Source of the DNA: Escherichia coli
GTDB taxonomy: Bacteria > Pseudomonadota > Gammaproteobacteria > Enterobacterales > Enterobacteriaceae
NCBI RefSeq assembly: GCF_003334255.1
Contig: NZ_QOWU01000081.1
DNA: 12,747 bases
Reading direction: 5' to 3' (one strand)
The notes beneath the pieces are model-generated. The model searched no databases and had not been told where the DNA came from. It was given only the letters and a program-made list of their open reading frames with translations. Shown here piece after piece: positions 8,836-10,665 of this stretch. The position numbers and the translations under genes were made by a program. Positions within the stretch are counted from its first letter, which is position 1, and the number at the start of each line of letters is the position of its first letter.

Positions 8836-8897
8836 TTAGGTTGCACCTAAATCATTAGGCATAGCCTATTGACAAACAATTAGGCATTACCTATAGT
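8836..8897 (+). promoter_or_regulatory. OL/PL-like region: three operator sites and a strong rightward sigma70 promoter for the early-left (dicB-type) operon
   Basis: Sites TTAGGT-TGC-ACCTAA (8836-8850), TTAGGC-ATA-GCCTAT (8855-8869, the exact reverse complement of the OR site at 8216-8230) and TTAGGC-ATT-ACCTAT (8880-8894). -35 TTGACA 8869-8874, 17-bp spacer, -10 TATAGT 8892-8897. Confidence 0.6.
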
Positions 8898-9075: not shown

Positions 9076-9228
9076 ATGGATACTATCGAGCTTGGCAACA
9101 GCGAATCTCTGGTATGTGGAGTATTCCCCAACCTGGACGGCACGTTTACCGCGATGACGTATACCAGAAGCAAAACGTTTAAAACGGAAGCTGGCGCGCG
9201 TCGCTGGTTAGCAAGAAACTCTGACTGA
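9076..9228 (+). CDS. Small early-left protein, 50 aa (YdaF/YdfA-like by position); the ORF could start at 8998 (76 aa)
   Basis: ATG 9076 preceded by GAGG at 5-nt spacing. Product MDTIELGNSESLVCGVFPNLDGTFTAMTYTRSKTFKTEAGARRWLARNSD. Confidence 0.5.
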   Translation: MDTIELGNSESLVCGVFPNLDGTFTAMTYTRSKTFKTEAGARRWLARNSD

Positions 9229-9302: not shown

Positions 9303-9342
9303 TGCTCTTTAACAATCTGGGTATTCCTAACCACAAAGGAAT
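9303..9342 (+). promoter_or_regulatory. rrn-type boxA (TGCTCTTTAACAA) followed by a stem-loop: candidate nut-like or Nus-factor-dependent antitermination site in the early-left transcript
   Basis: Exact 13-nt match to the rrn boxA consensus as I recall it, at 9303-9315; hairpin ATTCC-(10 nt)-GGAAT at 9323-9342, 7 nt downstream; about 400 nt downstream of the PL-like promoter. No N-like protein identified. Confidence 0.4.
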
Positions 9343-9773
9343 CGCATCAATTTGGATTTTGCAGACAGTTTCTCTTGTTGTTCTACGGAGATTCCTATTT
9401 TGATCTGGGTTTTTAAGATTGCGATATCTTTAAGCGACGACCAAATATTATCATCTGTTTTTTCCAGGAGCTTTAACTGCATTTTCAATTCCGAATCGGA
9501 ATATTTTTCTGCATCATCATAAAACTGCAGATATTCTGCGGATTTTCTCATTGCGTTACCTGACTTTTGTCCGAATCCGTAAATCGTTTGAACGGTTGCT
9601 ATCACAACAATGAGAACTCCAGAAACTTCAGGAATAAATCCACCAATGACAGATGAACCGAGGATAATACTCACCACTGAGAAAAGTTTATCGAGACGAC
9701 CAGTCGCTACAGAGAATAGTTGTTCAAGAAAATAACCATATAAAACCCTGTCAAGAATATCATCCCGGTCCAT
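9327..9773 (-). CDS. Two-transmembrane-helix membrane protein, 148 aa, putative superinfection-exclusion protein (SieB-like by position and topology)
   Basis: ATG 9771-9773 preceded by AGGTGA. Hydrophobic segments LFSVVSIILGSSVIGGFIP and VSGVLIVVIATVQTIYGF followed by a helical charged domain. Transcribed opposite to the early-left operon, as sieB is in Rac. The gene looks AT-rich relative to its neighbours. Confidence 0.5.
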   Translation of the reverse strand: MDRDDILDRVLYGYFLEQLFSVATGRLDKLFSVVSIILGSSVIGGFIPEVSGVLIVVIATVQTIYGFGQKSGNAMRKSAEYLQFYDDAEKYSDSELKMQLKLLEKTDDNIWSSLKDIAILKTQIKIGISVEQQEKLSAKSKLMRFLCG

Positions 9774-9832: not shown

Positions 9833-10021
9833 ATGGTTTTGGTCGAATGTTTTTCTCAGGTATATGTTTCCTGGTATTCGGAATGTCCGCCCTGTCCGCA
9901 GGCTTACCAGTACCTGAACAATTCTTTTGAACCACCATATAAAACACCTTCCTGTTGTTGGGGATATCCAGATTATACAGATTTCCTGTTATTGGGGAAT
10001 GACGGAAACCACCTCGCCTGA
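9833..10021 (+). CDS. Small Cys-rich protein, 62 aa (5 Cys; Kil/YdfC-position gene); the ORF may start at 9788 (77 aa)
   Basis: ATG 9833 preceded by AAGGAG at 6-nt spacing. Product MVLVECFSQVYVSWYSECPPCPQAYQYLNNSFEPPYKTPSCCWGYPDYTDFLLLGNDGNHLA. Could be spurious. Confidence 0.4.
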   Translation: MVLVECFSQVYVSWYSECPPCPQAYQYLNNSFEPPYKTPSCCWGYPDYTDFLLLGNDGNHLA

Positions 10022-10236
10022 CGTGGTTAAAAGCAGGCACACAACACGAAAGCGCACGGCGAGATTCCTTTGCATATAAGGCTTGTCGTTAAATTTCTTC
10101 GACCGTGCACTTCCGGTTGTGGCAGTCCGCGAAATGGCGCGGCGGTAAGTATGGCTGGGGCTTCCTCCATTGCTCCAGAAAATGCACCGGGTCGTCAGGT
10201 TGACCATACGCTTAAGTGACAGCCCCGCCACAATAC

Positions 10237-10294
10237 CCATGTGTAGTATTTGGTGGCATCAGTTCTACTCCGTGACTGCTCTGCCACCCTTTTT
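10237..10294 (+). ncRNA. dicF: DicF-like small RNA (cell-division inhibitory sRNA of the dicB operon)
   Basis: TTTGGTGGCATCAGTTCTACTCCGTGACTGCTCTGCCACCC followed by TTTTT matches my recollection of E. coli DicF (TTTGGCGGTATCAGTTTTACTCCGTGACTGCTCTGCCGCCC) with 4 substitutions, two of them compensatory in the terminator stem (GGTGGCA/TGCCACC at 10252-10258 and 10282-10288). The 5'-most ~12 nt differ. Immediately upstream of dicB. Confidence 0.8.
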
Positions 10295-10297
10295 AAA

Positions 10298-10459
10298 GTG
10301 AATTTTGTGATGCGGTGAATGCGGCTATGCGCACGCGGAACAGTTAAAACCGTAAAGTGGTCTTTTACGGGGCGTAACGGGCATCCTTCTGTATTCCGGC
10401 GTTAATTGTTAACTGGTTAACGTCACCTGGAGGCACCAGGCACCGCATCACAAAATTCA
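10298..10459 (+). repeat. 19-bp perfect inverted repeat (10298-10316 and 10441-10459) enclosing 124 bp between dicF and dicB; likely a long-range RNA stem serving as a processing site
   Basis: TGAATTTTGTGATGCGGTG ... CACCGCATCACAAAATTCA. An internal hairpin CCGTAAA-GTGGTCT-TTTACGG lies at about 10350-10370. Confidence 0.7.
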
Positions 10460-10476
10460 TTGTTGAGGACGCGATA

Positions 10477-10665
10477 ATGGAAACGTTATTACCAAACGTT
10501 AATACGTCTGAAGGTTGTTTTGATATTGGTGTTCTGCTCAGTAACCGGGAGTTTACGGAAGATGCCATTAAGATGAGAAAATATGAACCTTATCTTCTCA
10601 ATGATAATTCCATACTTTCCAGAATTGCCCTTCTTGAACTTGGTATTATCGGAGAACAGCAGTGA
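10477..10665 (+). CDS. dicB: DicB-like cell-division inhibitor (MinC-activating), 62 aa
   Basis: N-terminus METLLPNVNTSEGCFDIGVLLSNREFTEDAI matches my recollection of Qin DicB (MKTLLPNVNTSEGCFEIGV...FTEDAI). GAGGA ribosome-binding site at 7-nt spacing. Follows dicF. Confidence 0.85.
   Translation: METLLPNVNTSEGCFDIGVLLSNREFTEDAIKMRKYEPYLLNDNSILSRIALLELGIIGEQQ

Follow-up and report, generated by a model that had tools for sequence, protein, structure and literature searches.

DicF is an Hfq-dependent small RNA that is cut from the immunity-region operon (ydfA ... dicF - dicB) of lambdoid prophages and has become the textbook small RNA of prophages, but almost all of the work has been carried out on the allele of Escherichia coli K-12. 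The subject here is a DicF copy at positions 10237-10294 of a 12,747-nucleotide (nt) stretch of E. coli DNA (contig NZ_QOWU01000081.1 of assembly GCF_003334255.1), and the whole of this stretch is referred to below as the window. An initial annotation of the window had described the copy as a DicF variant with a compensatory change in its terminator stem and a divergent 5' region. It is a genuine natural allele of DicF and not a new kind of element and, judged by sequence comparison, its 5' arm is a second conserved allele rather than random sequence, one that resembles part of another small RNA, RprA.

DicF is bound by Hfq as an RNA of approximately 53 nt, the 5' end of which is made by RNase E and the 3' end by termination or RNase III. 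The targets of DicF have been assigned to different parts of the K-12 molecule. Pairing of the 5' end with xylR was demonstrated by mutation and compensation using the DicF3 and DicF11 mutants, and pairing with ftsZ and pykA was located in the 3' part (Balasubramanian et al.), with pairing to manX also placed in the 3' end (Azam and Vanderpool). The initial annotation was thus right that the 5' region pairs with some targets, and xylR is the only one of these four that depends on the arm.

RprA is said to have two separate seed domains, one for rpoS and one for ricI. It is cut by RNase E, which releases the last 47 nt, starting AAUUGCUG..., and this form, which is active, occurs alongside full-length RprA (PMC9262595, PMC6202311). 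The segment RprA60-105 is a highly conserved region and is sufficient to lower both csgD mRNA and CsgD protein (Mika et al., PMC3465796). The csgD sequence from -119 to -84 (site I) is complementary to RprA nt 60-97, the pairing was proven by exchange of CAGC (-90..-87) with compensation in RprA, and ydaM (dgcM) pairs with the same RprA bases (PMC3465796).

The DicF allele and its relatives

The Rfam DicF model RF00039 matches the window at 10238-10289 (+) with 62 bits against a gathering score of 48 (E = 6.7e-12), and the match spans model positions 1-52 of 52, i.e. the full length, so the alignment confirmed the identity first proposed. The reference for all further comparison was the K-12 dicF gene (NC_000913.3 1649382-1649434), which was fetched and then aligned to the window. 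The K-12 RNA reads UUUCUGGUGACGUUUGGCGGUAUCAGUUUUACUCCGUGACUGCUCUGCCGCCC and that of the window CCAUGUGUAGUAUUUGGUGGCAUCAGUUCUACUCCGUGACUGCUCUGCCACCC, the latter with a TTTTT tail at 10290-10294. In K-12 numbering only two of the first 12 bases are identical (G7 and U8); the divergence of about 12 nt that had been claimed is real, and the portion said to be retained does align to K-12. Some differences had gone unmentioned. Arm positions 9-12 read GACG in K-12 and AGUA in the window in an ungapped alignment, all four differences being transitions, which is consistent with kinship of the two arms but is not proof of it. A 14-nt element, TCTGTTATCAATTT, lies directly upstream of K-12 dicF and has no counterpart in the window, and there are two further substitutions in the body, U21C and U29C.

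Two pattern scans of IMG/VR, taken together with the window and the reference loci, provided 155 DicF copies with enough flanking sequence, representing 29 distinct 58-nt forms, and three types can be distinguished among them. The first, type A, resembles K-12. Type B, the type of the window, has the arm CCAUGUGUAGU(C/A)UUUGG and the stem GGUGGC/GCCACC and accounts for 35 copies. In type C, of which there are 30 copies, the arm is CUAUGUGUAGUCUUUGG and the stem GGCGGC/GCCGCC, and the loop has two additional changes. The 5' arm is common to types B and C, with only one of their copies departing from the core TGTGTAGT, but the leaders upstream are unrelated, that of type B being K-12-like and that of type C different. 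The downstream genes also differ: 29 of the 30 type C copies are followed by kilR, and the gene after types A and B is mostly dicB. For type C, a single copy with an indel made the counts of variable columns per segment unusable.

In the window the outer stem of the hairpin pairs 10252-10258 with 10282-10288 and the inner stem 10260-10263 with 10275-10278, leaving a loop at 10264-10274. The K-12 pair C18:G50 has become U18:A50 (T10254:A10286), which converts GGCGG/CCGCC to GGTGG/CCACC, and the paired substitutions described in the initial annotation are therefore real. A U·G pair at 21:47 in K-12 is replaced by C10257:G10283 (U21C), and the loop base C10265 is also changed (U29C). The predicted folds have the same shape, with energies of -15.8 kcal/mol for the window and -15.9 kcal/mol for K-12, and it is the change from U21·G47 to C:G that lets the two hairpins fold equally well. 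If pair 18:50 were changed on one side only, the predicted energies would be -11.9 kcal/mol with a C·A mismatch and -15.4 kcal/mol with U·G. An alignment of 28 of the 29 distinct forms (the one with an indel was left out) has 98.7% of its cells paired; pair 18:50 is C:G in 20 variants, U:A in four, U:G in two and mismatched in two. The U:G variants mean that the wobble intermediate of a compensatory path exists in nature. The stem change is compensatory and the hairpin is kept, as had been claimed.

Surveys of complete genomes gave an idea of how widespread the arm is. Some form of DicF is present in approximately 4000 of 5426 complete E. coli genomes, and a 65-nt query containing the window arm is matched to at least 80% in 312 of the 5426, with 23 records matching exactly. 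The alternative arm is found in roughly 5% of complete E. coli genomes, and type C with its own leader in 104 of the 5426. Single genomes in IMG/VR may hold types A and B, A and C, or two copies of type B. All O157 genomes among the matches listed are matched only from the hairpin onward, which makes the best O157 copies in that set type A. No type B arm was found in the INPHARED phage collection, where all 22 matches begin at TTTGG. A scan for the DicF core in one genome per species returned two contigs, labelled Proteobacteria and Lachnospiraceae bacterium, both of type A and both metagenome-assembled, and is uninformative on spread outside E. coli. Among phage records a dicF region occurs in MT713136.1 (Aeromonas phage AP1) and PP818812.1 (Actinobacillus phage vB_Apl-pPE4), both assigned to non-enterobacterial hosts; in the 254-kb genome of AP1 the DicF match is 90% and of type A by its start, and either transfer or contamination is possible.

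The RprA-like box and its predicted targets

The single-stranded arm contains a box, TGTGTAGTATTTG, that matches 12 of the 13 bases of RprA nt 67-79. The commoner type B allele carries the RprA 13-mer UGUGUAGUCUUUG complete, and the single change in the window is from C to A at arm position 12. In the fetched K-12 sequence RprA nt 60-79 is AUUGCUGUGUGUAGUCUUUG and the 3' end of rprA reads ...GAAACAACGAAUUGCUGUGUGUAGUCUUUG-CCCAUCUCCCACGAUGGGC-UUUUUUU, so that the box stands directly 5' of the terminator hairpin in RprA as it does in DicF of types B and C. The 20-mer is present exactly in one type C variant (loci L059 and L155) and is one base off in the allele that predominates in type C; in the window 12 of the last 13 bases of the 20-mer are present and the first seven absent. 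Bases 10240-10248 are the proposed seed, and the TTT at 10249-10251, invariant or nearly so in all DicF types, is probably an internal U-rich Hfq element. The RprA model RF00034 (gathering score 70 bits) has no match in window positions 9900-10500 at E values up to 10; the window DicF is thus not an RprA gene, and what the two have in common is a module. In alignments the leader upstream of the window arm is likewise homologous to the K-12 dicF leader and not to RprA. No link of RprA to DicF or to prophages was found in the literature covered, which did not extend to a 1994 survey of dicF-like sequences that possibly includes variants.

The likeness goes further in type C. The full-length RprA model can be aligned to a type C locus (L059:2435-2576 (-), 35.2 bits, E 0.015, below the gathering score of 70), the DicF hairpin standing where RprA has its terminator. 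Similarity is significant over approximately 30 nt only (RprA nt 50-79, 28 of 30 bases), a stretch that includes the context of the RprA RNase E cleavage site, AACGA(C)AUUG. Type C as a homologue of the whole of RprA was rejected, because upstream of the ~30-nt box the real score is reached by 99 of 2000 shuffles. With loci such as L059 and L006 it becomes a question which of the RNAs was the donor of the module. K-12 itself was also matched by the type C query, in the Rac prophage between sieB and kilR. The DicF-like hairpin at this place (L174:4022-4077) is degenerate, scoring 39.1 bits against a threshold of 48 and having lost its loop core, and is preceded by an RprA-like box, with a sub-threshold RprA match of 28.1 bits (aligned block ...AAAUAACGACAUUGCUGUGUGUAGUC); the fetched RefSeq record has no feature annotated on this stretch.

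The effect of the arm on target choice was examined as dimer partition-function energies against 60-nt target segments, and controls were obtained by shuffling the first 15 bases 300 times. Simple duplex folding of full-length DicF with its targets had given over-long, unrealistic duplexes and was replaced. For xylR the predicted energy of the K-12 RNA is -16.2 kcal/mol (0/300 shuffles as good) and that of the window RNA -6.6 kcal/mol (110/300), which is background level; the 10-base-pair (bp) match of K-12 DicF with xylR, GGUGACGUUU/AAACGUCACC, is destroyed. At csgD site I the order is reversed, with K-12 DicF at background (-4.5 kcal/mol) and the window RNA at -11.8 kcal/mol (0/300); the common type B allele gives -10.2 and RprA60-105 -19.4 kcal/mol. 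Bases 4-12 of the window RNA, UGUGUAGUA (10240-10248), are predicted to form a perfect 9-bp duplex with csgD -99..-91, which directly adjoins the proven CAGC, and the window-specific A at position 12 would add one pair relative to RprA and the other type B allele. Of 5426 E. coli genomes, 5345 have a csgD leader with 95% identity or more. The shifted target set that had been suggested on the basis of the divergent arm is thus supported, as a prediction, by the xylR energies, and the match to the RprA seed turns it into a specific proposal in which xylR is lost and csgD-type targets are gained.

Targets assigned to the 3' part are predicted to be less affected. Predicted binding of pykA and manX is as good as in K-12, and the pairing of the CUCCG core with GGAG of the ftsZ ribosome-binding region is kept, in a hybrid that is predicted to be weaker. 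Bases 1-12 of the window RNA (10237-10248) are also complementary to K-12 manX +21..+33, AGGCACACAUGG (L173), near the known SgrS site, but the match depends on the two bases at the extreme 5' end, and as it is doubtful whether the mature RNA contains these, it is probably due to chance.

The operon and competing explanations

The locus is 100% identical to that of a lambdoid prophage beside ompW in E. coli G1/2 (NZ_CP060083.1, near 2,969,000), where the RefSeq gene order is racR, ydfA-like, dicF, dicB, ydfD-like (DUF1482), exonuclease, xis and int. The features of the window are collected in Table 1. The candidate promoter lies between the racR-type repressor gene and the ydfA-like gene.

Table 1. 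Features of the dicF operon in the window, with the evidence for each
Feature	Position (strand)	Description	Evidence
Candidate operon promoter	8869..8897 (+)	TTGACA, 17-nt spacer, TATAGT; 11/12 consensus bases	Consensus scan only
ydfA-like gene (DUF1391)	9076..9228 (+)	First gene of the operon	RefSeq annotation, phrog_751
148-codon gene	9327-9773 (-)	Between ydfA-like gene and dicF; unknown function	Matches only phrog_6315
Conserved leader	10114..10236 (+)	Homologous to the K-12 ydfC 3' untranslated region upstream of dicF	Alignment, precursor folds
DicF small RNA, type B allele	10237..10294 (+)	nt 1-53 by K-12 alignment, plus U5 tail	RF00039, alignment, predicted fold
RprA-like box	10240..10252 (+)	In the single-stranded 5' arm	Real rprA sequence, alignment, variant tables
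Terminator-type hairpin	10252..10288 (+)		Rfam structure line, pair counts, folds
Long-range helix, 5' arm	10298..10317 (+)	Just after the DicF terminator	Perfect inverted repeat of 10441-10460
Long-range helix, 3' arm	10441..10460 (+)	Ends 16 nt before the dicB start codon	
dicB	10477..10665 (+)	Cell-division inhibitor	RefSeq annotation of the G1/2 locus, phrog_1251 over full length

The 148-codon gene occupies the position that sieB has in Rac, and the operon transcript must cross it in antisense. The 'dicF-like region' annotated in phage P1 and its relatives matches the leader only (10127-10227 (+), 76-77%) and not the small RNA, which makes the leader a separately conserved element. In K-12 the 14-nt element and the arm are predicted to fold into a small hairpin, the loop of which, AUUUUC, contains the annotated DicF 5' end.

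Downstream of DicF the 20-bp long-range helix is conserved in K-12, although two of its pairs, C:G and G:C in the window, are U·G and G·U there. Processing of the K-12 DicF transcript by RNase III has been described in a review, and 10298-10317 is likely to be the site of the cut that makes the longer DicF species in K-12; the helix may also control translation of dicB, which starts 183 nt after the window DicF. The DicB protein of the window has a K-12-like N-terminal half and a different C-terminal half, and its median identity to the DicB genes downstream of type A copies is 67%. The spacer between DicF and dicB (10301-10454 (+)) scores below threshold with the Rfam family STnc100 (RF02076; 36.5 vs 47 bits), and the spacer before kilR in L059 gives 46.2 bits. 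Elsewhere in the window there is a hokD/sok toxin-antitoxin pair at 3223-3548 (-), hokD being annotated in the G1/2 locus and sok (3373-3548 (-), 120.5 bits) being, apart from DicF, the one Rfam family that exceeds its threshold in the window. The early genes of the prophage include one at 3616-4281 (-) that is annotated as the tRNA-modification enzyme QueH (epoxyqueuosine reductase).

The reading we prefer, to which we assign a probability of about 0.6, is that the type B DicF is a working-looking natural allele that combines a conserved body with an RprA-like arm and has a partly different set of targets. The body module (hairpin, loop and U tail) would still repress ftsZ, pykA and manX, ftsZ perhaps more weakly. 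The arm module UGUGUAGU(A/C)UUUG, homologous to the seed of processed RprA, would replace the K-12 arm and could pair with sites used by the RprA 3' seed, the best candidate being site I in the leader of csgD, the curli/biofilm regulator. We infer that the mature RNA includes the arm, that it no longer controls xylR and that it acts on csgD or other RprA-type targets. A number of observations weigh against this, several of which are taken up with the alternatives below. The RNA is a candidate whose 5' end is placed by alignment to K-12, and the window has only 12 of the 13 box bases. By chance alone a genome should contain dozens of complements of 9 bp, and csgD was picked because of the RprA match and not by an unbiased search. 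The interest of the csgD site lies solely in its known use by the homologous RprA segment. The hybrid-only energy with ftsZ is also weakened, from -27.9 kcal/mol in K-12 to -21.3 kcal/mol in the window, mostly through G50A.

Plain allelic divergence, in which the RNA acts through its body only and the arm is a passenger that has inherited its likeness to RprA without any role in targeting, would fit two of the awkward points: the window lacks GCUG, the RprA bases whose pairing with csgD was proven, and its predicted pairing with dgcM (ydaM) is not better than that of shuffled arms (37/300). Moreover, type B varies so little along its whole length that a conserved arm within the type says little and could reflect recent common descent. 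The sharing of the arm by types B and C is the stronger argument for conservation, as the two keep it behind unrelated leaders and before different division-inhibitor genes (dicB and kilR); in addition the equivalent K-12 arm is a proven seed, and the matching RprA segment is the most conserved, active part of that RNA. A passenger arm is regarded as unlikely, although it is an explanation to be taken seriously. Rather less probable is that the arm is present in the transcript and is lost on processing, for example by RNase E cutting at 10247|10248, which would leave the U-rich stretch, the hairpin and the tail. The A at arm position 12, which the window allele alone has in place of the C of the commoner allele, creates GU|AUUU. 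This fits the sequence preference of RNase E and could be a cleavage site, and a cut there would remove the seed. The K-12 hairpin that holds the annotated DicF 5' end in its loop is also missing from the precursor folds of the window. However, RprA keeps GU-CUUUG uncut in its processed form, and the arm is conserved in the population.

The shared box could also be concerned with handling of the RNA, i.e. with Hfq binding or RNase E processing, and not with target recognition. All DicF types have the UUUG(G) before the hairpin with little or no variation, and the RprA-like stretch of type C takes in the context of the RprA cleavage site, both of which would fit such a role. K-12 DicF works with a different arm, however, and the box is thus not needed for the handling of DicF, while the RprA bases adjacent to it pair with csgD and ydaM by genetic proof; we consider this explanation improbable. 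That the locus is a decaying, silent remnant from which no functional small RNA is made is very unlikely indeed. The open reading frame of 148 codons on the opposite strand, between the first operon gene and dicF, might be taken as a sign of decay, and K-12 Rac provides an example of a truly degenerate DicF-like remnant (39 bits). At the window locus, however, the Rfam match is full length and above threshold, the stem has been maintained by compensation, the U tail, the long-range helix and dicB are intact, and the allele recurs in many genomes.

If the preferred reading of type B as a working allele with an RprA-like arm is right, it has consequences for what is known of DicF. Should approximately one in 20 E. 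coli genomes have the RprA-type arm, results on DicF targets, those on xylR in particular, would not be transferable to them, and induction of a prophage could feed into the curli/biofilm switch. It would also be a clear example from nature of small RNAs that evolve by swapping a seed module, here between an RNA of the core genome and one of a mobile element, while the scaffold stays constant. A bolder version, offered as tentative and on balance doubtful, is that seed cassettes are exchangeable between host and phage and that DicF of types B and C carries that of RprA, so that derepressed DicF would both block division and mimic processed RprA, shutting off csgD and curli as well as other targets of the RprA 3' seed, with the DicF alleles of a single genome governing separate host programmes, type A directed at xylose use and types B and C at biofilm.

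Comparison with known DicF and RprA

Multiple copies of dicF, four in all, have been attributed to different prophages of enterohaemorrhagic E. coli O157:H7 (Melson and Kendall 2019, as cited in reviews), and the genomes with more than one DicF copy resemble that case, in that one genome can hold several DicF genes on different prophages. The closest characterised relative of the window allele is DicF of the K-12 Qin prophage, with which it has in common the covariance-model family, the hairpin, the loop core ACUCCGUGACUG and the U tail, as well as a place in the operon upstream of dicB and the long-range helix downstream. It differs in 10 of the first 12 bases, and so lacks the bases proven to pair with xylR, in the hairpin substitutions C18:G50 to U:A, U21·G47 to C:G and U29C, and in the upstream 14-nt element, which only K-12 has.

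Type C DicF, found before kilR in Rac-like prophages, shares the arm, C21, C29 and the structured leader downstream with the window, but retains C:G at 18:50, has two other loop changes and is followed by kilR instead of dicB. It keeps ~30 nt of RprA-like sequence with the cleavage-site context. Processed RprA (RprA60-105, or the last 47 nt) has the same layout as that predicted for the window RNA, a short arm, a hairpin and a U tail, and it carries in its single-stranded arm, before the terminator hairpin, the 13-mer of which the window has 12 bases; both RNAs are complementary to csgD leader site I. Unlike RprA, the window DicF has no rpoS-pairing region and no AUUGC upstream of the box, possesses the DicF hairpin and is borne by a prophage. 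What sets the window allele apart from a routine variant is that the divergent arm, as a second conserved allele, matches the RprA 3' seed, which suggests that seed modules are shared between host and prophage.
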